Positions 1 through 52,452 of a stretch of DNA of 52,452 nucleotides are shown here, one piece after another. The stretch is taken from sequence record PQ818760.1; one strand, 5' to 3'. The position numbers and the translations under genes are program-made. The stretch comes from Escherichia phage EcoM1. How positions within the stretch are numbered: the first letter of the stretch is position 1; each line of letters opens with the position of its first letter. The notes beneath the pieces were generated by a model, which was given only the letters and a program-made list of their open reading frames with translations, was not told where the DNA came from and did no database searches.

Positions 1-1395
1 CTATAGAGTTGAGACTTGTTCATTTGACAGCGCATTGTCCCAAATACGAAGGGACCGTACAGCAAACTCTGCCCTTGTAATGGCAGAAGATTTGGTCCAC
101 GTCGATAGTGTTGGCCGACGGTTGTTGGAATCTATGCCTGGAATACTGTGCCTGGCCACAAGAACACCGTCAACAAATATTCTTGCAGTGGTGTCTGCCA
201 CTGTTACACAAATTCTGGACCATTTCCCGACAGTTGCGACAGCAGGACTAATAACCTTGGGAGTGTTTACAAGGACTCCTGACGGGTTTCGGTATCGCAG
301 AATGACGCCACCGTCAAAACATACGAGAACCTTCAAGGTTTCCATACCAAAGCCAAATTGCCAGTTACCATCCGCACCATCTTGAACAATCTTCGTATAG
401 TCTACACATATCGTGTACCTGGAACCATTCGACAATTGCGTATTGTTGAACCAGTTTATACCCGCAGAACCAACATCAGGAGATACAAAAGCCAGTGCCC
501 CACCAAGAGCCTCATTGTAGGCAGGTTCTGTTGCAAACGTATTGAAAATTCCAGCGCCACGAAGAATGTTTACAGACTTAATAAGCGACATTTCATATGC
601 CGGAAGTTCAACAGCATATCTCGGCTCTTGTGCTGCCTTCACATCTGGGAAGTTTAGTTCCGTAACAATATTAGACTTGCTCGAAGCAGTACCAGTTTCC
701 GCATTCCCTGTGGAATTATTGATGCCGAGGTAGTAGCTCCCATTACGAAGATACAATCCACCGTCATTAACAATCTGTGCAGTCTTAGAATCATTTAAGT
801 ACACAGTCGTGAAGGTTACTTCACCAGTGTATGCCCCACCAGTTACAGGAACAGCACCAACTTGAGTTGCAGTAAGTTTGTGTGGATTGTTGTAATCCGT
901 TACGTGTGCTTGAACCATTGCACGATAGTTGGCAACAATCGAATCAAGTTCGGATTTGTCATATGCACCAATTTGTGCAGCAGTTACTTTGTGCGGGTTT
1001 GTGGTTACATCTGCAATGTGCGCATTGATTGCTGCAACAATTGAGTCGTAATTTGCACGAGAAACTTGAATGGAGCTTGGACTCCACTGTGCAGAGTTCT
1101 CACTTGGGCGTAGTGTTTTGCTAGGGTTGGTGACAGTACAAACATAAATCGTTTTGTTTGTTTCGTCCCAAGCCAAACTACCAACGCCATAACTTACATC
1201 ACTGCCCCACTCAAAGATTCCACGTTCCGCTTGAGCAAGCATAGTGGTGTCAATCTTGTATTGCAGGTAGTTAAGAACCTGGTAAGTTGGTATCTCTGCA
1301 ACCCAGCCCTTGAGATATTTTGCATCGCCTGGGTCACGTCTTGCGACAGAGTTGTTTGAGGTCCAGACTCGGTTCAGTTTAGGACGAATTGCCAT
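1..1395 (-). CDS. tail fiber protein (distal fiber gene)
   Basis: Ends with TAG at window positions 1-3; ATG at 1393-1395 overlaps the upstream stop by 1 nt (track ORF extends to a TTG at 1464). Two NPHK(V/L)TA.Q(I/V)GA fibre-repeat-like motifs; last gene of the baseplate/fiber cluster. Call from context and motif only. Confidence 0.5.
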   Translation of the reverse strand: MAIRPKLNRVWTSNNSVARRDPGDAKYLKGWVAEIPTYQVLNYLQYKIDTTMLAQAERGIFEWGSDVSYGVGSLAWDETNKTIYVCTVTNPSKTLRPSENSAQWSPSSIQVSRANYDSIVAAINAHIADVTTNPHKVTAAQIGAYDKSELDSIVANYRAMVQAHVTDYNNPHKLTATQVGAVPVTGGAYTGEVTFTTVYLNDSKTAQIVNDGGLYLRNGSYYLGINNSTGNAETGTASSKSNIVTELNFPDVKAAQEPRYAVELPAYEMSLIKSVNILRGAGIFNTFATEPAYNEALGGALAFVSPDVGSAGINWFNNTQLSNGSRYTICVDYTKIVQDGADGNWQFGFGMETLKVLVCFDGGVILRYRNPSGVLVNTPKVISPAVATVGKWSRICVTVADTTARIFVDGVLVARHSIPGIDSNNRRPTLSTWTKSSAITRAEFAVRSLRIWDNALSNEQVSTL

Positions 1396-2543
1396 TATGG
1401 CCTCACTAACATTGATTGTTGATATGCGGTAAGAGTTGGGTAACAGGTAATTCTCTCGACCCAAACAGCAGAGGTGAATCCCATGTTTGTCAGTAGGGTT
1501 TCCATTGAAGTGTATCCAGCAGACGGAGCCTTTATGGACCTTGCTGTGATAAGATTTCCACCAGCATCTCTTCCGTACATGACGATTGACGTTGGGCAGG
1601 CAACATCAAAACCTTCGAAGGTTATTGTGTTGTCATCAACTTTAATCCCACCTTTGGGGTGAAATATTGGAGCATCCGACGTATTGATGGTCCACCCACG
1701 AGTTGACATGGCATCGTTGATAGATGTTTTCATGTTCATGTCGAGGTATGGTTGAGGCAGTGCGAACCTGTTTCCCCATCGGATTTGAAATTCCCAGTAA
1801 TTCAGTTCGGTCATCACTGGATATTCTTCACCACCAACTATGCTCCACAGAACATTGCCGAGTGCATCAATGGATAGAATCCTGTTACCTTCGCGCATCT
1901 CAATTCTACCATTTCCTGGGTTCATTCGGATTGAGATGTTTGTTTTAAACTTCATCCCACCAAGCAGTGACACTGGTCCAGAGAACTTACCGCCAGATGT
2001 TGGCAGTGTACCAAGCTGTTGAGGAGTTTCTTGGTGAACACGTCCAGTTTGCAGCTTGTGGTATACAATAGTTCTTGGGTCTGTTTTACTCCCAAAGGCA
2101 TCATCAATGGCAGACTTGTTGTAAGTCTTGTTTACTATAGTATCTACAGTATCCTTGTGTGGGTTGGTTGCAGCCAAGTGCCCATCGTAAATGGACTTCA
2201 AGTTGCTAATGTCATTAAGGTAATCAACCTTCTTAAGATTAAGTACCTCTTCCCAACCTGTGGCAGTATTAACACGAATAACACCATTAAGGGAAGACAC
2301 TGCACCAACCTGGTAGGTCACACTGGAATCAAACTCGGCGATACCACTAAACAAGAGCGAGATAATCTTCAAGTCACTAATCTGCGACAAGAAGTTTTGC
2401 CACTCGTTAGGTGGCTTCTCAACTTCCCAACCTAAGTCGGCATATCTGTTTTCGATAAAACTTGGTGCAGAGGTGTCCAAGTCCGGGTCTTTAACTTCAC
2501 CATCTTGCGCCCAGGGAAAATTAAACTTAAGACGTTGTGTCAT
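1395..2543 (-). CDS. tail fiber protein (proximal fiber gene)
   Basis: 382 aa; ATG overlaps upstream stop at 2543; has an ATNPHKDT motif like the next gene; sits after the J-like and I-like baseplate genes. Confidence 0.45.
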   Translation of the reverse strand: MTQRLKFNFPWAQDGEVKDPDLDTSAPSFIENRYADLGWEVEKPPNEWQNFLSQISDLKIISLLFSGIAEFDSSVTYQVGAVSSLNGVIRVNTATGWEEVLNLKKVDYLNDISNLKSIYDGHLAATNPHKDTVDTIVNKTYNKSAIDDAFGSKTDPRTIVYHKLQTGRVHQETPQQLGTLPTSGGKFSGPVSLLGGMKFKTNISIRMNPGNGRIEMREGNRILSIDALGNVLWSIVGGEEYPVMTELNYWEFQIRWGNRFALPQPYLDMNMKTSINDAMSTRGWTINTSDAPIFHPKGGIKVDDNTITFEGFDVACPTSIVMYGRDAGGNLITARSIKAPSAGYTSMETLLTNMGFTSAVWVERITCYPTLTAYQQSMLVRP

Positions 2544-3184
2544 TATTTCTCCGGAGGATAATCTTTGGAACCATAAACCAAGGCAATATTACCTCCAGCA
2601 TCTCTGAGGGTAATCTTGACACCAACAGGTTTAAAGTTTGGAAGCATGTGCGCCATAAGAACTTTCTCAGGTACAGACAACATTTCATGAACAACATAAT
2701 CCATTGTCTGAAATCCTTCTATGATTTGAAGTTTCAGTTCCCTTCCCACAACCAACTCAATGTACATGATGATTTGTTCGATGGTGCAGTTGCCAGTTAT
2801 CTTAATGATTCGGGCACGTATTGCAGCCTTCAACTGTGCATCTGTTCGAACAAAGTCCCCAGAGTCCCTGTCGTAGTCTGATTTCAGAATACCACCAACA
2901 TTTGGGTTATTGTCATCACCAGCAGAGAATGCACCTGGGTTGGCATAGAAGCCAAAGTACCCAAGTGCTGCGGCACCATGTATTACGCGAGAAGCCCCTA
3001 CAAGATATGCAAGGTCGTCAACCATGATGCCGAATGAGTCTGCTAAGTATCTGTACTTGATTGAGTCAGCCATGGCCTTCTTAACTTCTGCAAACTCTTC
3101 CAAGAAGATGGAGATATATTTGCGTAAGTTTGGTGAAAGTGCATACTGCGAAAGCAGCATGTCTAAGCCATGTTTACCAGCCAT
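2543..3184 (-). CDS. baseplate protein, tail-protein-I-like
   Basis: 213 aa directly downstream of the J-like gene, the position of gpI-type proteins in P2/Mu-like baseplate clusters. Positional inference. Confidence 0.4.
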   Translation of the reverse strand: MAGKHGLDMLLSQYALSPNLRKYISIFLEEFAEVKKAMADSIKYRYLADSFGIMVDDLAYLVGASRVIHGAAALGYFGFYANPGAFSAGDDNNPNVGGILKSDYDRDSGDFVRTDAQLKAAIRARIIKITGNCTIEQIIMYIELVVGRELKLQIIEGFQTMDYVVHEMLSVPEKVLMAHMLPNFKPVGVKITLRDAGGNIALVYGSKDYPPEK

Positions 3185-3185
3185 A

Positions 3186-4343
3186 TTATACTGTCACATC
3201 TGTGTAAGTTATGTTTGCAGCAACGCCACGAGCACGCTTATCAATATCCAAATCAATGGTTGCTGTTCCAGATGGGCTTGGAGCAATACCAATAAATAAT
3301 GAATCAATTTCAAGCGACTGTGTTGCAGCCATGATTGGAGCAAACATGTTAGACCATACCACACTCTGACCTGGTTGCAGGGAGTTGAGGTAGTTAACAG
3401 TTGCTTCGGTTAACTGACGAATAGCATCGTTAGAACTCAGGTTGGCATTTGCACGGCGACGGAACGTACCTTTGACATAAATGTCTGTGTAAGTTGGTCG
3501 GCTGAAATGAATATCGTGCGGATAGCCTTTCGAGTCTGTAACAGTGATTGTGATATCGCCATGTGTCGGAACACCGCCAGTCTTGGCGTTGTAGATTCGA
3601 CGTGCAATATCATTGCTAGTGCCGCCATCAACTACAACAAATACAGTGCCCGAAGGCTGACTGCCAATAGGAGAGCCGGTATCATTATCACGAACACGAA
3701 TGTAATCAATATCGAGGTCAGCGAGTGAAGCATAGATTGCTTCGACTGTGGCTGTGCTACTGACTGCCGTAGTCCTTTCTCGACGTGCACGGAGTTGTGG
3801 GTCCGGTTCATAGTTAATACCAGTTTCTCCAGCTGTTTCGTTGTTGACAGAAGTCCAACCAGCAACAGGAGTTACGATTTTGTTGATGGAGTTTGGTGCG
3901 ATGTAATACTCGCCAGCTTCTTCTGCGATAACAGTTACGTCACCTGGAAGTGTTACGTCTGTATCAAGAGTGAAGCGCATGGTTCCGTCAGTTACAACAG
4001 AGCCAGCAGGTACAACAGTACCTGAATCACCACTGCACAAAACAGTTGCCTGTGAAGGCTTGTCAACATATCGAACAGTGTTTGTTAATTCGCAAATGTT
4101 GTCCAACCCAATACCAGATACAGCACCAGGACGGAAGGCGTTAAACACTTGTTCGGCCTGTTCCCAGCACGAGGCTATTTCGTCGGCCATGATTCCGATA
4201 TATTGCCCATCAGGAGATTCTGGACTTATGTCAAAGTTGGAACCAAATGCGGCAATAAATTTGTTATTGAGGTTAGCTACAACGTCGGCCACAGGCTTGC
4301 GAACAAAGCCATTCTCTGTTACGCCGTATTGGATTGTTGCCAT
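3186..4343 (-). CDS. baseplate J-like protein
   Basis: 385 aa, size and position between the W-like and I-like genes typical of baseplate J/gp6 family. Not confirmed by search. Confidence 0.5.
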   Translation of the reverse strand: MATIQYGVTENGFVRKPVADVVANLNNKFIAAFGSNFDISPESPDGQYIGIMADEIASCWEQAEQVFNAFRPGAVSGIGLDNICELTNTVRYVDKPSQATVLCSGDSGTVVPAGSVVTDGTMRFTLDTDVTLPGDVTVIAEEAGEYYIAPNSINKIVTPVAGWTSVNNETAGETGINYEPDPQLRARRERTTAVSSTATVEAIYASLADLDIDYIRVRDNDTGSPIGSQPSGTVFVVVDGGTSNDIARRIYNAKTGGVPTHGDITITVTDSKGYPHDIHFSRPTYTDIYVKGTFRRRANANLSSNDAIRQLTEATVNYLNSLQPGQSVVWSNMFAPIMAATQSLEIDSLFIGIAPSPSGTATIDLDIDKRARGVAANITYTDVTV

Positions 4344-7904: not shown

Positions 7905-10900
7905 TTATCTTCTTTGTTGCGCACCGTTGTTCATGTTCATCTGTTGAGTCACAGTCTGACCACCAGGAATTGCCACTGTAGCAGAAGCAGTCTGGTTGTT
8001 GACCTTAGCATCAATCTTAACATTAACAACAGTTTGGGTTTGACCGTATGACATTCCATTACGAGTAAACCCTGTAGCACCTTCTTCCAAAGACTGAGAA
8101 GACTTGGACCATTCACGGAATGCTTTGACGCGATTCTGTGCTTGCACGGGAACAGCAGTTAGCCAATCCAACCCATTCTTATCAACAGCTTTGTCAACAG
8201 TGCCAGGACCATCGGTGTAAGCAGCCATTGCCTTTTCGTGGTCGCCATAACGCTTGTACATTGCGTCATAATATTCACGACCAACTCGCGCATCATCTTC
8301 TGGAGTTCCATCAGACGGCTTGATTCCAAATCCTGGGTCACGGGCAGTCGAAGGAAGAATTTGCATTATTCCACGAGCACCAGTGCGACTTGTTACACGA
8401 GAACCATCTTTATTGTATTCACGACCACCGGATTCTTCCTGAGCGATAAAGTCATAAACACTTCCAGCAAACTCACGGGCCTGATTGTATCCAGTACGAG
8501 CACCGTCAAGTGCAGCACTTCCGGCTTCGAAGATTGGAGCACCATTAGATAGGACACTTTGTGGCACGTTGTAGCTAGGCAGCACGCGTGCGCGGCTCCC
8601 CTGCAACATTTCTGACTGAGCCATACCTTCGGCAAAGTCAGAGTTTCTACCCGCTTCTACCACCGAACCAGCTTGCTCATGGCTGTATTCCGTGCGGTCG
8701 TAGGCTCGCGCCATCCCATTCAGGCCAGCCATTTCGGCAGCACCTGCGATACGGGCCTGACTCCAGCCACGCTCCTTGCCCCTTTCCTGCATGATGCGAG
8801 CCAGGGCCACAGGGTCGCCGCCTGTCGCACGAATATCACCTATGGTGAGCAATCCCCTACTGCCGCGAACGATGTTCACAGCGGCGCTGGGGTCGCCGTT
8901 AAGCATGGTGTTGTAGGCACTATGTGTGGTTTGATTCAGACGTGCCGCTTGTTGTGAATTGAGTCCTAACATCTCCAAGCCTTGCGACATGGAAGAATAT
9001 TCATTAGGATTCATAACACCAGCATCAAGCGAGTTGCCGATAAAGTCATTCATGTATTCAGCAGCTTCATTGCCAATCTGAATAGCACCAATGCCTACAG
9101 CAGCCATACGTCCCGCAGGAGTTGCCATCAATGCTTGCATAACTCCGTTGGTTGCTGAACCAATACTGCCGCCAGCAATACCAGCAGCTAATGAACCACC
9201 CATGCGACCGTAGTCATCATAGTAGTTGCCACCACTTGTAAAGTTACCGCCACGACCACCGCCACCGCCAGAATATCCACCGCCATTGGCAGCATCAAAT
9301 CTTTCGCGGTCCCAACCCATTGAGTCGGCTTTGCCATTAAAGTCTGCGTCTGCACCAATACCCTTCTGCCTGTTTTCTTCCTGAGCAGCAAGGATACCTT
9401 TCTTAACAGACAATGCCATCGAGTCATTTCCAGTATCACCGTTTCCTGTGGTTGCTGGAAAGTTTTGCTCGTGCATTACAAAGTTTGGCTGGTAGTCAGA
9501 GTAAGATGCCGTTGGGTTGTACGAAGAGCGTGAACCAATGAATGGGTCTTCTGGAGTTCCAGCAACGGCAGAATAGCCACGAGTGGACCTTTGACGAATA
9601 TCTTTCCAGATTCCATCACCAGTCATTGCACTTCTTGCACCAGAAATCAGTTCTTCACGGTCTAGCCCAGCATTGTTTCTAACAAACTCTCGCCCAGCAT
9701 CAAGACGGCCAAGCACAGAATCAAGACGATTTCGGTTTCTCTCGTACCATCCTTCGTCCTTCTCAATCCATTGTGAACGTGTTTCGTCGTTGATGGTTTG
9801 TGAGAACAAAGCACGAGAACGGCCAGAAACGTGCATACCAAATTGAATTTGGTCCATGTAATCTGGATGGTCGCCTTTAAGAAGGTCGGCAAACTTACCA
9901 GCCCTTTGCGGATTCTTGTGCTCCCAAATGGCATCATCGCCAATAAGGCCATCAGGAGAATACATGAAGGCGGGATAGTTGTCATTTGTTATAGCGCCAG
10001 TTTGTTTGATATCGAATCCAAATTCCTTACCAACACGAGCGCGTGCTTCTTCTTCCGTCCTGTGACCATCAGCGAACATCTTTTTGGTGAAATCGCTGTG
10101 CTCTTTACTACGAGATAAACCAATCTTGTCAATCATTCCCGCCCAAGGTCGGGTATACGGGTTGTTTCCTAAGAAGGTTCCAACAGTTGAGCCAGTTATG
10201 TCATAATTTTTACGGAAGTCTAGCCACTCTTGGCTACCCTGTTCTAAGTCATGGAATCTGACGGGAGACTCGGAACGTCCTGTACCATAGTCGGATACAT
10301 CACGGAATCCAGCACTATCCATGTTTGCAATCGCAATTTCCTCACGACGCATTCTTGCAGAGTTCCAATTAGTGGCCTCTCCAAGTTGTGCTGTAAATTC
10401 TGTAGATGTTGATTGCGAATCTTTTTCGACTCGCTGTGATGCTCCCTTCATCTTTGGAATGCGAACAGGTTCGGCATCCATTTTGTCATAAGTGTTTTCG
10501 AGAATAGCTCGAACACTCGATGCAGAATAAGCTGGTTCATCTGCAAGTTCAGAACGAAGGTTTTCATACCCGCTTCTGGCTTCTTCCAAATCTGTATAGC
10601 GAGTTGCGCTATCCATAATCATGTCACGGTCAGATACTTCGTGACGAGTATTCATCATCCCTTTGGAGCCAGAATAAACTTTGGCAGCAGATTTAACAGC
10701 TTCACTAATGGAAGAATACAAAGCCTTGCTTGGTTCGCTCCAACCTGTGCCACCAGTTAATGATGCAGTGAGGGAGTATTCTGGATTTATGCCGGAACCA
10801 TAAGAACCAAGTGGGAGTCCAGATGCGTTAAGAGGTGCACGAGGATGTGCAATGCCAGAAACAATTGAAGGAGAACCAATCTGAGGAAGTGCATCCATGT

Positions 10901-11630
10901 AAGAAATATGTGGGGCCGATTTATTTCCTACATTAGAGGCCGAGGTATACCCAACTTCCTTAAAGGCTGTGGGTAACTCTTGTTCCAGACGTTTGGCAAC
11001 TCGACTAATGTCTCTTGCGTATTGTTCATGATTGCTGTATTGCTCACGGTCAACATACATGTGAGCCATGTAGTTGTATGAGTCGGCAATGTTTCCACGG
11101 TTGGTGGAGTATTCTGCCATAATATCACCAGCATAATGACCTGGGATTTCTGGCATAATATCTTGATGCCCTTGCAAAGTATCTCGCATGTAGGCATTAA
11201 GCATGTTGAAGCTACCTTGCGGTAAGTTCGGATTTGGCTTTGGCATGTGCATCCACACATCGTCTGTGTTGACACCAAGCCTTTCCATGTATGCGTGAAC
11301 AGCTTCTACATGGTGTGTTGGGCCATTCATTGCTGCATGAAATGCTTCTGTGTAGCCAGCACTTGAAAGCACTTGTGCAATGTGGGCAGCGTCTGAAATC
11401 ATGGAAGAGTCGCCCAAAGATTCAGTAATTAAACTGTCATCTTCAAACGACCCACCCATTAATTCTGCATTTGTATCCAGCCATCCCGAAGCAGCGCTCG
11501 CACTAAGTTGTTGAACCATGTGCGACTTCTTCATACCAGCATGGAAAGTCAGACCGCTTTGAGAGCCTAATGCAATTAACTCATTAACGCTCAACTTCAT
11601 TAAATCTTTTTGATTAGCCATTGTCTTCAT
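7905..11630 (-). CDS. tail tape measure protein with lytic transglycosylase (SLT) domain
   Basis: 1241 aa, largest ORF, downstream of tube and chaperone genes; contains GARGIMQILPSTA...YTDGPG transglycosylase-like segment and a Gly-rich region. Confidence 0.7.
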   Translation of the reverse strand: MKTMANQKDLMKLSVNELIALGSQSGLTFHAGMKKSHMVQQLSASAASGWLDTNAELMGGSFEDDSLITESLGDSSMISDAAHIAQVLSSAGYTEAFHAAMNGPTHHVEAVHAYMERLGVNTDDVWMHMPKPNPNLPQGSFNMLNAYMRDTLQGHQDIMPEIPGHYAGDIMAEYSTNRGNIADSYNYMAHMYVDREQYSNHEQYARDISRVAKRLEQELPTAFKEVGYTSASNVGNKSAPHISYMDALPQIGSPSIVSGIAHPRAPLNASGLPLGSYGSGINPEYSLTASLTGGTGWSEPSKALYSSISEAVKSAAKVYSGSKGMMNTRHEVSDRDMIMDSATRYTDLEEARSGYENLRSELADEPAYSASSVRAILENTYDKMDAEPVRIPKMKGASQRVEKDSQSTSTEFTAQLGEATNWNSARMRREEIAIANMDSAGFRDVSDYGTGRSESPVRFHDLEQGSQEWLDFRKNYDITGSTVGTFLGNNPYTRPWAGMIDKIGLSRSKEHSDFTKKMFADGHRTEEEARARVGKEFGFDIKQTGAITNDNYPAFMYSPDGLIGDDAIWEHKNPQRAGKFADLLKGDHPDYMDQIQFGMHVSGRSRALFSQTINDETRSQWIEKDEGWYERNRNRLDSVLGRLDAGREFVRNNAGLDREELISGARSAMTGDGIWKDIRQRSTRGYSAVAGTPEDPFIGSRSSYNPTASYSDYQPNFVMHEQNFPATTGNGDTGNDSMALSVKKGILAAQEENRQKGIGADADFNGKADSMGWDRERFDAANGGGYSGGGGGRGGNFTSGGNYYDDYGRMGGSLAAGIAGGSIGSATNGVMQALMATPAGRMAAVGIGAIQIGNEAAEYMNDFIGNSLDAGVMNPNEYSSMSQGLEMLGLNSQQAARLNQTTHSAYNTMLNGDPSAAVNIVRGSRGLLTIGDIRATGGDPVALARIMQERGKERGWSQARIAGAAEMAGLNGMARAYDRTEYSHEQAGSVVEAGRNSDFAEGMAQSEMLQGSRARVLPSYNVPQSVLSNGAPIFEAGSAALDGARTGYNQAREFAGSVYDFIAQEESGGREYNKDGSRVTSRTGARGIMQILPSTARDPGFGIKPSDGTPEDDARVGREYYDAMYKRYGDHEKAMAAYTDGPGTVDKAVDKNGLDWLTAVPVQAQNRVKAFREWSKSSQSLEEGATGFTRNGMSYGQTQTVVNVKIDAKVNNQTASATVAIPGGQTVTQQMNMNNGAQQRR

Positions 11631-46743: not shown

Positions 46744-48684
46744 TTACTGACAGAAGTAGTAAGCGTGTTCGCTCATCAGCAACTCTTCTGTAACAATGTT
46801 CTCATGATACATCTGAATGCCACCAAGTTGCTTAGACAGATTCTCGAATTGATTGTTGGTTACAAAGATTTCAACATATGCTGCACGAATAACTTCCATC
46901 ATACGTGGAGCATCTGCCAGACAGCAACGGAAACAATCATGGATTGAAGTAAAGCCACGAAGACCAGCCTCTTTAGCTTTAACTGCAACAGTACGAGCAA
47001 CCAATGCGTCAATACCTTGAATGTAGTTAACAACGAAAGTACGCTTGAATTCTTCTTTAGTTGGATTGGATTCACGAATGGTCCAAGGCTTATTCTCCTG
47101 AATCTGGCCAAAGATAACACGAGTTTGAGAGTCAACACGAATGCTGAATGCCTCACAGATTTCACGAGATGGGAAGCAAGGCTTCATTACAACCTGACCA
47201 TCAGTGTGACGATATGTGATGTACTCTTTACCAAGTTCAACACAACGGTTGTATGCAGCATCAGCAGCCTTCTCAATGAACATGTTAATCTTAGCACCCA
47301 ATGCGTTATGGATTGCTTCTACACACAGTTCAGCAAATGCCTCAGCTTTCTCCATAGGAATCTGGAGCGCTTCTGTCATGTAGCTAATGAAGTCAGATGA
47401 ACCAGTTAATGCAGCTTTACCACCACCATATTGAATAGCCATGTACGGAGTTTTGATAAACTTACGACCAGCTTTCGGATTCAAGAATTCATCCATGATT
47501 TCAGGAGATGGTTTCATTGAAGAACGGTCTAATAACTTCAACAGTTCACGAAGAGATAACTGGTATGGGTCAGATGCTTTAGTCTCAGAATCAACCAGAC
47601 CTGTTGCACGAGCCATTTCCATGTTACCAGCAATGAATGCCAGATATTGAGTACCAGAACATTTAGCATCTAGGCCAAAGCCTACACGAGAATCGCACTC
47701 ACCTGTAGTCTCAAACTTGAACCAATCCAGAGCCAGACGAACATAAGTGAATGGCTTGGAAGGACGTTCAGCTTTAGGCATGTTCATCATGCGAGCAAGT
47801 GAACCAGCTGGATTCTGAGCAACATAAGTTAAACGCTTAGCAGTACACCATTCACCACCCGAAATATCTTCCAGCTCTGCCATGAACATGTTGTATGCAA
47901 TGGTAGTAGAACCATCTTCGTTAAACTTCTTAACGATGTTCTCAACATTGTGAGAATACAAGCAACGAGCAAAGTCAGATGATTGTGGGTTAGGACCAGC
48001 ACATGCTACATGATACAGACGACCACGGTTATCAGCAAAGTAGTCAGAGTACAGCTTATCCTGATTCATCATTGCTACAGCATTGTTCCAAACATGGAGT
48101 TCAGTCTGGATTGCTTCTGGCATCTGCAAGCCACCATAAGTACGTTGCTCAATCATGGACTGGATGATGCGAACCATCTCAGTCTCCACATGGTACTCAG
48201 TATCTTGCAGGAATTCGATTGCAGCTTTCAGAGTTTTGGATGGCTTAACTTTGCCACCTTTAACGAAAGGCTTGCGACGAGATTCAGATGTAACACGCTC
48301 AGTGAATGGCACTGCTGTGTCTTTGGTTGTAACCAGCTCAACCCATGTGTCAGTCTGTTGGAATGACTTGTCTTCGTTCATGGTGATGAAGCCAAAGTGC
48401 TTAGCCAGACCAATGAGGTTGATAGCTGGGTCAACATAGTGCATTGCTTTCAAATCGTTGTTATAACGGTTGGCATCAGCAATAGAAGCAGAAGCCAGCT
48501 CAACCATCGCGATGGCAGGAACAACGTCATCACGAGTGAAAGACGTCATCATCTTGAAGATGGCTAAGGCAGCAATAGCACAAGTCTGAGGCTGCATATA
48601 GTTCTGTTTCTCTTTGGCACGGTATACCAGAGCAGTGATAGCAGGAACAACGGATTTGATAGTTTGAGTAGTGATAGTAGTCAT
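46744..48684 (-). CDS. single-subunit DNA-dependent RNA polymerase (T7-type)
   Basis: 646 aa with the three catalytic motifs of T7-class polymerases: LDAKCSGTQYLAFIAG (T7 DGSCSGIQHF, motif A), KTPYMAIQYGGGK (T7 KRSVMTLAYGSK, O-helix K/Y), TSIHDCFRCC (T7 LIHDSFGT, motif C). Shorter than T7 RNAP (883 aa). ATG start with GGAG 9 nt upstream. Confidence 0.85.
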   Translation of the reverse strand: MTTITTQTIKSVVPAITALVYRAKEKQNYMQPQTCAIAALAIFKMMTSFTRDDVVPAIAMVELASASIADANRYNNDLKAMHYVDPAINLIGLAKHFGFITMNEDKSFQQTDTWVELVTTKDTAVPFTERVTSESRRKPFVKGGKVKPSKTLKAAIEFLQDTEYHVETEMVRIIQSMIEQRTYGGLQMPEAIQTELHVWNNAVAMMNQDKLYSDYFADNRGRLYHVACAGPNPQSSDFARCLYSHNVENIVKKFNEDGSTTIAYNMFMAELEDISGGEWCTAKRLTYVAQNPAGSLARMMNMPKAERPSKPFTYVRLALDWFKFETTGECDSRVGFGLDAKCSGTQYLAFIAGNMEMARATGLVDSETKASDPYQLSLRELLKLLDRSSMKPSPEIMDEFLNPKAGRKFIKTPYMAIQYGGGKAALTGSSDFISYMTEALQIPMEKAEAFAELCVEAIHNALGAKINMFIEKAADAAYNRCVELGKEYITYRHTDGQVVMKPCFPSREICEAFSIRVDSQTRVIFGQIQENKPWTIRESNPTKEEFKRTFVVNYIQGIDALVARTVAVKAKEAGLRGFTSIHDCFRCCLADAPRMMEVIRAAYVEIFVTNNQFENLSKQLGGIQMYHENIVTEELLMSEHAYYFCQ

Positions 48685-49384: not shown

Positions 49385-50485
49385 TCATAATTCAAATCCA
49401 CCTAGAGCATTGGTATCCACTTCGGAGTCAATCTGCCCGACAAGGTACGAACTAATCTCCGTTTCCTGCGGAGCAACCTGTACAGCATCCGAATTCAACC
49501 ATGCGTTAATCCACGGAATCGGGTTAGTAGCACCTTTGAATGGAGCATCTAATCCAACTGCTTGCATACGAATATTCGTGATATATTCCACATATCCGCA
49601 CAGAATTTGCTTGTTTAAGCCAATCATTGAGCCATCTTTGAACAGATAATCAGCCCAATCTTTCTCTTGTTGGGCCACATTTTCGAACATTTCTTGGCAT
49701 TCTTGACGGCATTCTTTAGCAATTTCGGCCATTTCTGGGTCATCAACACCACTTGCAAGAAGGTTCAGCATGTGTTGAGTTCCGGTCAAATGGAGTGCTT
49801 CATCACGAGCAATTAAGCGAATAATCTTGGCATTTCCTTCCATTAACTTGCGTTCAGCGAAGGCAAATGAGCAAGCAAAGCTGACATAAAAGCGGATTGC
49901 TTCCAGTGCATTGATAGACATGAGGCATAAATACAGCTTCTTCTTAAGCTCACGAAGAGAAACTTTATCTTCATGCAGATGCCACATGGAAGTTAGATGT
50001 TGAAGCTCGTCATAATATTGGGAGATGCCAATTGCACGCATTTTAATATGCTCATTCTCCACAATTTCATCGAAAATTGCGCTTGGGTCTGTCACGATAT
50101 TACGAATAATATGCGTGTAAGAACGAGAATGAATTGTCTCTGAGAATGACCAAGTTTCAATCCAAGTTTCAAGCTCAGGAATGCTCACAATTGGTAGCAA
50201 AACTGTAGTTGGTCCGCGTCCTTGAATAGAATCAAGCAGGATTTGGTATCGTAAATTGCTGGTGAAAATGTGTTTCTCACACTCAGGAAGACCAGCATAG
50301 TCAATTCGGTCCTGGCTAACATCAACCTCCTCAGGTCGCCAAAAGAAAGACAACTGCTTCTCGATTAACTTCTCGAAGATGCTGTACTTCTGTTGGTCAT
50401 ATCGAGCAACGTTAACGTTCTGACCAAAGAACATTGGCTCTAGTAGTTGGTTATTCTTGGTTTGTGAAAAGGTAGTGTAAGCCAT
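49385..50485 (-). CDS. nrdB: ribonucleotide reductase class Ia beta subunit
   Basis: [15 protein letters not shown] with the E-x2-H-x3-Y iron/tyrosyl-radical arrangement, a second carboxylate-His site (RDEALH), and upstream Asp/Glu ligands; 366 aa. Confidence 0.9.
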
Positions 50486-51039
50486 TACAGATTTCCTAGA
50501 TACTCATAGAATTTATGGCCACCATAACGTCCCAAACCTTTTACATTCTTGAAGTTACACTTCTCCGATGCTGTACAAAAGTGGGTTGCTTTGGTGACAG
50601 AGGGTTGATTAAATAATACAAAAGAGATTGCAACATTAATGGTGTCCAGAACTTGTTGTTGTTCTGTGGCATAATTAATCTTTGCTACATGCTTCCATTG
50701 AGCATTCTTCTTCTTTGCTTCTCGTGTCCATGCAAATTGATTGCGTTGATAGACAACATCACAAACGGTGTTAGCGAATGGCTTCCCGAACTCTGTTCTA
50801 TTGCGGACGACATTAGCTACCAGAATCTTTCCATGTTTGTCTTCTCCGCGAGCCTCATACCAGATAACTTTAGTGTAGCATTCTAGCTCTTTGCGTTGTG
50901 AAGAAGATAGTTTCAGACTTCCATTTAAATAAGAATGACTTGCAAAATCTGTAATAGCAGAATTCACTGCCCCAACCGAAGCTGGGGCGTTGATGTGAAC
51001 TAAAGCTGTCAGAAGTGCAAGAACTTTGAATGATAGCAT
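50485..51039 (-). CDS. secreted cell-wall hydrolase, CwlJ/SleB-like
   Basis: N-terminal signal peptide ([24 protein letters not shown]) then [24 protein letters not shown] and [11 protein letters not shown], matching the CwlJ/SleB catalytic-domain signature; immediately downstream of the holin. Confidence 0.7.
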
Positions 51040-51056: not shown

Positions 51057-51398
51057 TCATCGTGCCTTCTTGAACCACGTTAAAGGGTTAAGTTGTTTGA
51101 TTGCGCCAGAGAAGCTTTCCCTGACAGTTGTGATAATGAGGTTTGCACCGATGACACCAATCACGATAGCCAGAACTAACTGCATTGTGACGTTAGTGGT
51201 GAAAGTTTCAAACGTGCCAGCAACATGAAAGGCAAACAAGCCAATCAAGCTGCATAGCGCTGCATCCAGCAACGCTTTGCTTAAACCTTCACTTTCGTAT
51301 GCACCACGGATTAAAGCCGTCAGACCAGCCAGCAGCCCATGCCATACGCCATACTGGTGCATCAGGTCCACAAACATCTGAATGGATAAGCGTTCCAT
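51057..51398 (-). CDS. holin, lambda-S-like class I
   Basis: From MERLSIQMF...: three hydrophobic segments and LIRGAYESEGLSKALLDAALCSLIGLFAF aligning with lambda S ([28 protein letters not shown]). An in-frame upstream Met (MPSGNGWLKEIM) gives a possible dual-start antiholin form; track ORF extends to 51506. Confidence 0.7.
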   Translation of the reverse strand: MERLSIQMFVDLMHQYGVWHGLLAGLTALIRGAYESEGLSKALLDAALCSLIGLFAFHVAGTFETFTTNVTMQLVLAIVIGVIGANLIITTVRESFSGAIKQLNPLTWFKKAR

Positions 51399-51405
51399 GA
51401 TTTCC

Positions 51406-52452
51406 TTAAGCCACCCGTTTCCAGAAGGCATAATAGTGGGACGAGTTGCGCACGTTAAGCGCCGCGCCGTCACCAGTTGAGGTTGTAGTGTTGTTGCTAG
51501 GACCACCCGTGGTTAGTGCCGTGCCTCCCGTACTTCCTGCACTAGAGCCGCCACTTGTACCTGTGAAGTTAGGCAAGTCAACAGAGTGCGTGTGGTTGCC
51601 ATTAGCATTGGCTGTACCGCTAATGCTGTGGGTATGGTTGCCAGCACCGTTTGTCGAGCCAACGTGTGTCTGAGCAGAGTTTGAGGAAGCAACCCTACCA
51701 GAACGTACGTTGGCGTTATCACCCTGAGATATTGGGTGGGAGTGCTCACCAGCAGCGTTAGCTGTGCCACTAAGCGAGTGGTCGTGCCAACCAGCGGTGC
51801 TGGTGTTCACTGCCCCGTGGTCGTGGTTGATTGTGTGAGTGTGGGACATCGTGTGGGAGTGGGCTGCAATACCGTGAGTGTGGTTTTGCATTCCGTGTGT
51901 GTGGCCCGGCAAGTTGGCTACAGCAATGCTGGCAGTATCTGACCCAGCTACTGAACCAATCTGCCCATCAGCCGTCCCAGCTTCCGGACCAGTCGCAGCA
52001 CGGGCAGTACGACCATCAGTGATTTGTTCCCACACAGTACCGGTGAATGTGTTGTTCGGGTTGGTGGCATTATCAAACTTGAGGACAATACCGATTGGAT
52101 AGATTGCATTATAAATGTTGTTTGCATTTATAAGCTCCACCCAATTCCCAAATGCCTCACTATCTGCGGCATAGTTTTGGCTACGAACCCAGCAACGCAA
52201 TGTGCCGTATGTCGTATATCGTTGCATCACCCTACCAAACTTATTGGCGCTGTGAGGCAACACTTCAAGAGTTCCTGCCTGAGCACCTGCTGGGTAATTG
52301 TTTGAAGTCGTGGCATAAGCATTGGACGATTGGTAATACACACCTACACTGTCCATTCCCGTGAGGGTGTCCAATTTTGTATTGTCCAGGTTGGTACGAG
52401 ACTTCATGTAGTGCTCGTCAACCAGTGCATCTAAAGAATAGCCTTTAGCCAT
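51406..52452 (-). CDS. fiber-like protein with His-x-His repeats
   Basis: 348 aa; ATG is the last three bases of the window; C-terminal half has about 10 HxH motifs (GHTHGMQNHTHGIAAHSHTMSHTHTINHDH...NHTHSISG...NHTHSV) like metal-binding fiber tip domains. Assignment by motif analogy. Confidence 0.4.
   Translation of the reverse strand: MAKGYSLDALVDEHYMKSRTNLDNTKLDTLTGMDSVGVYYQSSNAYATTSNNYPAGAQAGTLEVLPHSANKFGRVMQRYTTYGTLRCWVRSQNYAADSEAFGNWVELINANNIYNAIYPIGIVLKFDNATNPNNTFTGTVWEQITDGRTARAATGPEAGTADGQIGSVAGSDTASIAVANLPGHTHGMQNHTHGIAAHSHTMSHTHTINHDHGAVNTSTAGWHDHSLSGTANAAGEHSHPISQGDNANVRSGRVASSNSAQTHVGSTNGAGNHTHSISGTANANGNHTHSVDLPNFTGTSGGSSAGSTGGTALTTGGPSNNTTTSTGDGAALNVRNSSHYYAFWKRVA

Follow-up and report, generated by a model that had tools for sequence, protein, structure and literature searches.

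A 348-residue tail fiber protein of Escherichia phage EcoM1 with nine His-x-His motifs and similarity to the T4 gp37 receptor-binding tip

What is the function of a gene that lies at the very end of the Escherichia phage EcoM1 sequence (PQ818760.1), directly beside the lysis genes, and that encodes a protein with a dense array of His-x-His (HxH) motifs? The stretch of DNA analyzed here, designated as the window, is 52,452 nt long and is a nearly complete Carltongylesvirus genome (Chaseviridae). A sequence-only reading of the window had proposed a receptor-binding fiber tip or adhesin. The analysis points to a structural tail fiber protein, most likely a homotrimer, that functions as a receptor-binding module of a contractile-tailed phage, and the probability of this assignment is estimated at roughly 0.8.

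The 3' end of the window shows 83-90% DNA identity to Escherichia phages including ST32, TH53, phiEcoM-GJ1, Bp10, and flopper. The genomes of Carltongylesvirus relatives are 51.5-55.6 kb in length, and the window is of comparable size. All long ORFs of the window are carried on the minus strand. The ATG of the fiber gene corresponds to the final three bases, and the window thus ends exactly on the start codon, as had been noticed earlier. The coordinates of the gene, its segments, and its neighbors are shown in Table 1. In tblastn searches, the 348-aa protein aligned over 100% of its length with ST32 gp76 (89% amino acid identity) and phiEcoM-GJ1 gp72 (71%). Both are annotated as "tail fiber protein", and judged by sequence similarity the EcoM1 protein is their orthologue. 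The look-up returned no record with the exact sequence of the 348-aa protein; a 98%-identical relative (P0001) is encoded on a metagenomic contig of 52,448 nt with the same gene order.

Table 1. Coordinates of the tail fiber gene, the segments of its product, and the neighboring genes in the window.
Feature	Coordinates	Strand	Description
Tail fiber gene, whole	51406..52452	-	348 aa; stop codon 51406-51408; from ORF list and translation
N-terminal peptide, aa 1-15, MAKGYSLDALVDEHY	52408..52452	-	Proposed docking element
Variable beta "knob" domain, aa ~16-110	52123..52407	-	Inserted between N-terminal peptide and collar
Collar domain, aa ~111-183, YPIGIVLKFDNATNPNN...	51904..52122	-	Conserved; mean pairwise identity 0.80; Pfam Gp10_C
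Outgoing needle strand, aa 184-239	51736..51903	-	Seven HxH (184, 191, 198, 204, 210, 223, 237); aligned to 2XGF
Hypervariable "head", aa ~240-272	51637..51735	-	Aligns with T4 gp37 ~930-958; predicted chain-reversal point
Return needle strand, aa 273-335	51448..51636	-	HxH at 273 and 287, then His-free Gly/Ser/Thr-rich stretch; aligned to gp37 966-1013
C-terminal motif, aa 336-348, NSSHYYAFWKRVA	51409..51447	-	Near-invariant in homologues; aligned with gp37 C-terminus
Holin, 113 aa	51057..51398	-	PHROG 126 holin/anti-holin, 1.2e-17; 7 nt after fiber stop codon
Endolysin, 184 aa, Hydrolase_2/SleB-like	50485..51039	-	PHROG 938; Pfam PF07486 on 98%-identical relative
Fiber protein, 464 aa, ST32 gp75 orthologue	1..1395	-	PHROG 8147 tail fiber, 2e-126; immediately upstream on circular map
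Fiber protein, 382 aa, ST32 gp74 orthologue	1395..2543	-	PHROG 8147, 2e-129; conserved among relatives

In ST32, gp74 (382 aa) and gp75 (465 aa) are followed by gp76, the orthologue of the fiber gene analyzed here, and then by the 113-aa holin gp77. The order of two fiber genes followed by the orthologue of the 348-aa protein is kept in 12 annotated relatives, among them ST32, GJ1, flopper, SA91KD, Bp10, Mangalitsa, Bp7, JL1, SKA49, DE15, and TH53, and in one metagenomic contig. The two ORFs at the opposite end of the window (positions 1 to 2543) are the orthologues of the genes that precede it in these relatives; therefore, the suggestion that the window is circularly permuted and that the gene directly follows these two fiber genes was right. 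The relatives have an 8-nt spacer between the gp75 and gp76 orthologues (GATTCAAA in ST32), which is absent at the ends of the window. The 382-aa and 464-aa proteins have N-terminal matches to PHROG 2282 and PHROG 20878 in common, and on this sequence evidence they are paralogues in their N-terminal parts. The 348-aa fiber gene is the final gene of the baseplate/fiber block.

On the other side, the holin and endolysin genes were found downstream on the minus strand, in agreement with the earlier placement of the gene upstream of the lysis genes. Pfam Phage_holin_3_1 was recognized on the holin of a 98%-identical relative. A terminator scan of the interval between the fiber gene and the holin gene revealed 0 sites. 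This immediate proximity, with no terminator in between, would suit a protein that is not part of the virion, either an accessory of the lysis cassette or a fiber chaperone, and the T4 gene between fiber gene 37 and holin t indeed encodes a chaperone. Such a function is, however, extremely improbable. No similarity of the 348-aa protein to lysis proteins or chaperones was found, and every family, sequence, and fold match is a fiber or receptor-binding protein, so both candidates were rejected.

The most conspicuous feature of the protein is its HxH array. Nine HxH motifs lie within aa 184-289, and 18 of the 22 histidines in the whole protein belong to HxH pairs. Shuffling of the whole protein sequence generated 1.3 HxH on average (sd 1.1), with none of 20,000 shuffles reaching nine; when only the His-rich stretch of aa 180-310 was shuffled, the mean was 2.6 and a single shuffle of 20,000 reached nine. 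A chance compositional repeat was rejected on the basis of the whole-protein shuffles. The array described in the sequence-only reading is thus far above chance, although the count is exactly nine and not about ten. Its description of a Gly/Ser/Thr/Asn-rich context also matches the composition of aa 181-300, which is H 16%, S 13%, G 12%, T 12%, N 11%, and A 11%.

Of 120 listed homologues, with identities of 58-98%, 119 have nine HxH motifs and the remaining one has ten. In an alignment of 57 homologous sequences, all 18 paired histidines are invariant, and the residue between them varies freely (T, S, or D), as do the surroundings. At the DNA level, the direct repeats in the fiber gene are limited to three short families of two copies each, 15-19 nt in length. 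Therefore, the HxH array is not a recent duplication but an old feature that is preserved at the protein level.

Invariant histidines amid freely varying residues are the pattern of metal ligands, and the homologous di-histidine motifs of T4 gp37 coordinate iron along the needle (PMC12609058; PMC6563267). It is unlikely that the array functions without metal, as a compositional or structural repeat with hydrogen-bonded His ladders or with another ligand, although the division of its HxH between the outgoing strand (seven) and the return strand (two) is unlike that of T4 and would favor such a repeat.

Homology searches were performed with the protein sequence and with a profile of its family. 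The only significant sequence match in PDB was 2XGF, the receptor-binding tip of T4 gp37, with an E-value of 3.1e-9 by phmmer and 6.6e-9 with the family profile, and HMMER flagged a high composition bias for it (30.6 of 39.6 bits). Composition-adjusted BLASTP aligned aa 207-293 with gp37 899-986 at 38% identity over 88 aa (E 2e-9), an interval that takes in the head and the motifs beside it. The second match of the profile was the long tail fiber of cyanophage A-1(L) (8KEC, E 0.006). The best PHROG match was PHROG 2097 "tail fiber protein" (2.8e-40), and fibers of Felixounavirus are 46-47% identical over aa 121-293. The similarity to a known fiber tip, PHROG 2097, the Felixounavirus fibers, and the position after two fiber genes together uphold the fiber-tip or adhesin assignment proposed from the letters.

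Matches to the T4 baseplate protein gp10 were also returned by these searches. Pfam Gp10_C (PF21939) was recognized with an E-value of 7e-6 at aa 114-237, as a partial match covering 85 of 139 profile positions (2-86) and exceeding the gathering threshold narrowly (27.5 bits against the cut-off of 27.0). The match is stronger in a relative, Myduc gp76 (39.6 bits), and is precomputed on most homologues. The family profile also weakly matched T4 gp10 chains (E 0.18-0.37, aa 106-137). These matches would suit a gp10-like baseplate protein that organizes other fibers and does not itself bind the receptor. This function is very unlikely, because the Gp10_C match lies at the cut-off and is confined to a collar motif common to gp10, gp12, and gp37 (PMC3004832), and because the match to the gp37 tip is much stronger. 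In addition, a hypervariable head and knob, described below, are not expected in an internal part of the baseplate, and the gene is located after the fiber genes, not among the wedge genes. Wedge proteins are encoded at 2543..3184 and 3186..4343 of the window.

Another candidate, an iron-loaded tip of the central spike like those of P2 gpV and phi92 gp138, was rejected. Such tips carry just one HxH, at the apex of a beta-helical spike formed by the C-terminus, and are encoded together with the hub. The EcoM1 protein has its nine HxH distributed along 106 residues, Pfam and PHROGs returned no family of the spike, OB-fold, or beta-helix kind for it, and the gene lies after the fiber genes, not at the baseplate hub.

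The protein was divided into segments based on the gp37 alignment, the conservation among homologues, and an AlphaFold2 (AF2) model. In the N-terminal peptide, aa 1-11 and E13 are invariant, and H14 and Y15 are at least 90% conserved among 57 homologues. The counterpart of the collar block YPIGIV...FDNATNPN in the gp37 alignment is the motif YPIGAPIPW, at T4 residue 812. The head aligns with the segment of T4 gp37 containing its own head, which we take to be residues 933-959. Downstream of the head, aa 273-348 are again conserved, with a mean pairwise identity of 0.80. The C-terminal motif (HYYAFWKRVA) resembles the C-terminus of T4 gp37, FNYIVRLA, and is kept as ...Y(Y/x)A.W.R(T/V)A in distant relatives.

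This alignment predicts that the chain doubles back at the head and that the C-terminus returns to the collar. The outgoing strand is 59 aa and the return strand 64 aa; similar strand lengths are what a hairpin needs, and they fit this topology, as does the gp37-like C-terminal motif. The spacings around the head are 13/14, about 36, and 14, and match those of T4 (14, 37, and 14). The AF2 monomer model, built with the 57-sequence alignment, reaches high confidence in the knob alone, where most of aa 21-110 has pLDDT values of 85-94, and is poor in the collar and needle, with values of 32-74 across aa 111-348. Therefore, the fold of the collar and needle gains no independent support from the model. 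A poor monomer model of the collar and needle is expected for an obligate intertwined trimer.

The following architecture is proposed. Each chain would start with the conserved 15-residue peptide, which may dock the protein to its carrier, pass through the variable beta knob and the conserved collar, and extend outward along a thin needle with the seven outgoing HxH. It would turn in the small hypervariable head and run back along the return strand, with the two remaining HxH and the Gly/Ser/Thr-rich stretch, to end near the collar. By analogy to T4 gp37, each HxH would face the needle axis from all three chains of the trimer, and the six imidazoles could hold one metal ion there in octahedral coordination. 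Up to nine such ions would staple the six-stranded needle together; if the metal is the same as in T4, it would be Fe2+. The head would be the part that touches the host receptor, as it does in T4.

The variability among relatives is consistent with this role of the head. Across the three fiber genes, the head is the most variable segment, with a mean pairwise identity of 0.25 and a minimum of 0.11, and a variability peak at this position is expected for a receptor-contact site. The residues aa ~240-272 are predicted to constitute both the receptor-contact tip and the chain-reversal point. The head of EcoM1 belongs to the type of ST32 and TH53 (85-97% identical) and is unrelated to that of GJ1 and SKA49 (12%).

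The 464-aa protein has a conserved N-terminal part of 260 aa and a hypervariable C-terminal ConA-like domain (identity 0.34), with a match to Pfam Laminin_G_3 at aa 379-463 (8e-11). It is probably a second receptor-binding protein. The three hypervariable modules, namely this upstream lectin domain, the knob, and the head, recombine independently among 12 phages, and the assortment of head types does not follow that of knob types. The pair GJ1 and SKA49 agrees in the head (0.90) and the lectin domain (0.88) and has different knobs (0.42), while JL1 and DE15 agree in the knob (0.97) and not in the head (0.23). The heads of TH53 and EcoM1 are alike (0.85), and their lectin domains are unlike (0.28). 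Over the set of phages, the knob is weakly correlated with the upstream lectin domain (r 0.28), and the lectin domain is better correlated with the head (r 0.54, Mantel p 0.001). The latter correlation fits shared host adaptation or linkage and names no docking partner.

A search at E <= 0.001 against a library clustered at 50% identity revealed 944 relatives. In many of them, the module corresponding to aa ~111-348 forms the C-terminus of proteins with lengths of 200-1351 aa. The N-terminal peptide is likewise found outside the full-length architecture. It heads relatives of 212-237 aa that have no knob (4HA13 gp77, P0122, P0131, and P0138), as well as a 452-aa protein that has no HxH (P0143). 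At the same gene position in 4HA13 (Sabourvirus), the 212-aa protein has the N-terminal peptide joined straight to the collar (MARGYSLGGLINDLYKLVYPVGICIDFDNATNPN...), and the knob is therefore regarded as an insertion. Myduc has two such fiber genes in tandem.

How the trimer is attached to the virion was considered from these relatives. There is about an even chance that it is the distal tip carried on a fiber made of the upstream gene products. A T4-like three-part fiber was proposed for this phage group by Lukianova et al. (PMC6989608), with the receptor contact assigned to the protein at this position; active protein was not obtained in that study. The short relatives, with only the 15-residue peptide before the collar, argue for docking onto another fiber protein.

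Not much less likely, at somewhat below even odds, is direct attachment of the trimer to the baseplate. The protein would then be a separate, self-contained short fiber sitting on the wedge, with A-1(L) gp34, T4 gp12, and the short tail fiber of Bas63 as parallels, and the upstream 382-aa and 464-aa proteins would form another two fibers, each independent. Several observations speak for this arrangement. A-1(L) gp34 (379 aa) consists of an anchor and a gp37-like arm and binds the wedge directly (PMC10966104). The common N-terminal domain of the 382-aa and 464-aa proteins suits two parallel baseplate-bound fibers, as in Bas63, and for an invariant peptide, the hypervariable lectin C-terminus of the 464-aa protein would be an unusual place to dock. 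However, A-1(L) gp34 is anchored by a shoulder of 155 aa, whereas the short relatives have only about 15 residues before the collar. Electron micrographs of the related phage Y2 are cited as showing two-part fibers with a globular junction (PMC6989608), and the adjacency of the genes with an 8-nt spacer fits co-assembly without proving it.

The distribution of the N-terminal peptide tentatively suggests a "plug-in" system, which is possible but stays below even odds. The invariant 15-residue peptide would dock interchangeable tips at a conserved fiber site of Chaseviridae, and the lectin domain, knob, and head would be exchanged independently. The needle would be a variant of the gp37 design in which the metal sites number up to nine and the outgoing strand alone supplies the five closest to the collar. 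Collar plus needle, knob plus collar plus needle, and the HxH-less C-terminal domain of P0143 would be the interchangeable tips.

The literature search found no published experiment on any orthologue and no published statement of a gp37-like HxH needle in a Chaseviridae protein. For the structural proteomics of Y2, it returned nothing useful, and for a cryo-EM baseplate structure of Chaseviridae, none was found. In the virion proteome table of 4HA13, proteins appear only from 50% coverage upward; the homologue is not among them, and its absence is uninformative (PMC9699118).

The assignment itself is routine, as the orthologous group is already annotated as "tail fiber protein" and the architecture is that of a known gp37-type tip. 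The current understanding of fiber architecture is unchanged, and the importance is modest. Carltongylesvirus phages such as GJ1, ST32, and their relatives are biocontrol candidates against enterotoxigenic and Shiga-toxin-producing E. coli. Targets for host-range engineering are the upstream lectin domain, the knob, and the 33-residue head (aa 240-272), the likely site of receptor contact; the conserved N-terminal peptide may offer a simple route for grafting foreign tips. By analogy to T4, these phages may represent one more lineage whose fibers carry iron.

The T4 gp37 tip is one of the closest characterized systems. It shares with the EcoM1 protein HxH in a Gly/Ser/Thr/Asn-rich repeat (G-x-H-x-H-S-x-S-G-T...), the YPIG collar motif, a similar C-terminal motif, and a head that is the variable part, and in both genomes the fiber gene is just upstream of the holin region. 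The T4 tip makes up the final 240 aa of a chain of 1026 aa, whereas the EcoM1 protein is a stand-alone protein of 348 aa, with the N-terminal peptide and knob instead of a long shaft. The distribution of the motifs also differs. In EcoM1 the outgoing strand bears seven of the nine HxH and the return strand the other two, against three and four of the seven in T4; therefore, the needle packing must differ in detail. The folding of T4 gp37 needs gp38 and gp57A (PMC3004832), whereas no gp38- or gp57A-like chaperone gene was found adjoining the EcoM1 fiber gene. In the Yersinia-infecting relatives, a chaperone gene follows a divergent fiber (PMC8762354).

The long and short tail fibers of Felixounavirus (Bas63 and Felix O1-like phages) resemble the EcoM1 protein over the collar and needle. 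Cryo-EM of Bas63 revealed the same terminal organization in its fibers as in T4 gp37, with a collar followed by a needle that has HxH motifs and a chain that doubles back, and by a head (PMC12609058). Unlike in these phages, the module in EcoM1 is carried by a separate small protein with nine HxH. The gp34 protein of A-1(L), whose arm was described as gp37-like (PMC10966104), is similar in size and in combining an anchor with this arm, and it has a dense outgoing run of HxH just after the collar; the match is weak, and its wedge-binding shoulder has no recognizable counterpart in EcoM1.

The closest relatives are found within the Chaseviridae. ST32 gp76 and phiEcoM-GJ1 gp72, which correspond to the "tail fiber 3" position of PP101, have the same length as the EcoM1 protein and the same place between the 464-aa fiber gene and the holin gene, and differ from it in sequence detail alone. 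The proteins of the 4HA13 gp77 type, from other Chaseviridae and metagenomes, share the N-terminal peptide, collar, HxH needle, C-terminal motif, and genomic position with the EcoM1 protein, and are distinguished from it by the lack of the knob of aa 16-110 and by an HxH number that ranges from six to nine.

The 464-aa fibre protein encoded directly upstream of the HxH fibre gene (the orthologue of ST32 gp76) in the circular map probably acts as a second receptor-binding protein. The C-terminal lectin domain of this protein is hypervariable, with a mean pairwise identity of 0.34 among 12 phages. The lectin-domain type is correlated (r 0.54; Mantel p 0.001) with the type of the head, the hypervariable segment at aa ~240-272 of the HxH fibre.

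Features of the fibre and lysis neighbourhood, the 1241-aa protein and the Myduc fibre locus
Feature	Location	Strand	Description
Upstream fibre protein (gp75 orthologue)	window 1..1395	(-)	464 aa; C-terminal Laminin_G_3 (ConA-like lectin) domain
1241-aa protein	window 7905..11630	(-)	ST32 gp66 counterpart; PHROG 19855 match
ORFs at early-region side of lysis block	window 46744..48684 and 49385..50485	(-)	
Two tandem fibre genes, Proteus phage Myduc	L015:3937-6605		437 and 451 aa

At position 1 the window opens with the gp75-orthologue stop codon, and at its other end (52452) stands the ATG of the gp76 orthologue; that the end falls exactly on the start codon of the fibre gene was noted in the sequence-only reading. 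The 8-nt spacer found in relatives at the gp75/gp76 boundary (GATTCAAA in ST32; 2992 to 3001 in L016, the sequence of a relative) is missing from the window ends. Because the ends sit on the stop codon and the ATG without this spacer, PQ818760.1 looks like a permuted genome whose sequence was opened, or trimmed, at the gp75/gp76 junction. [quoted passage not shown]

The 1241-aa protein looks more like a tape measure protein than a tail fibre. Its ST32 counterpart is annotated as "tail fiber", and the PYps23T counterpart, Gp76 (1224 aa), was named "large main tail fiber" (PMC8762354). The PHROG match is described as "virion structural protein", a lysozyme/transglycosylase-like segment is present at aa ~1044-1214, baseplate genes are located immediately downstream, and a 128-kDa "tail tape measure protein" is listed in the 4HA13 proteome.

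A Carltongylesvirus-like fibre/holin/endolysin region was also observed in PP952070.1, "Staphylococcus phage Pel53", whose stated host is Staphylococcus hyicus. Identity is 88% for the DNA, across 60% of the query, and 65% for the fibre protein. The Staphylococcus label looks doubtful, being out of keeping with the fibre and lysis genes.

The holin frame is open upstream to a GTG within the fibre gene; read from there, it is a 149-aa ORF (window 51057..51506 (-)) that overlaps the final 33 codons and the stop codon of the fibre gene. The alternative start, an ATG at 51398, seven bases past the fibre stop codon and directly preceded by AAGGAAA, gives 113 aa. This 113-aa form is the annotation in most of the relatives compared, while the flopper record has a longer form (132 aa) and the Bp7 holin is shorter.

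The Myduc tandem fibres occupy the same genomic position as the HxH fibre gene. Both show a MAKGWSF-type N-terminus, a Gp10_C collar and, in two copies, a segment that is knob-like, but HxH motifs are few in both.
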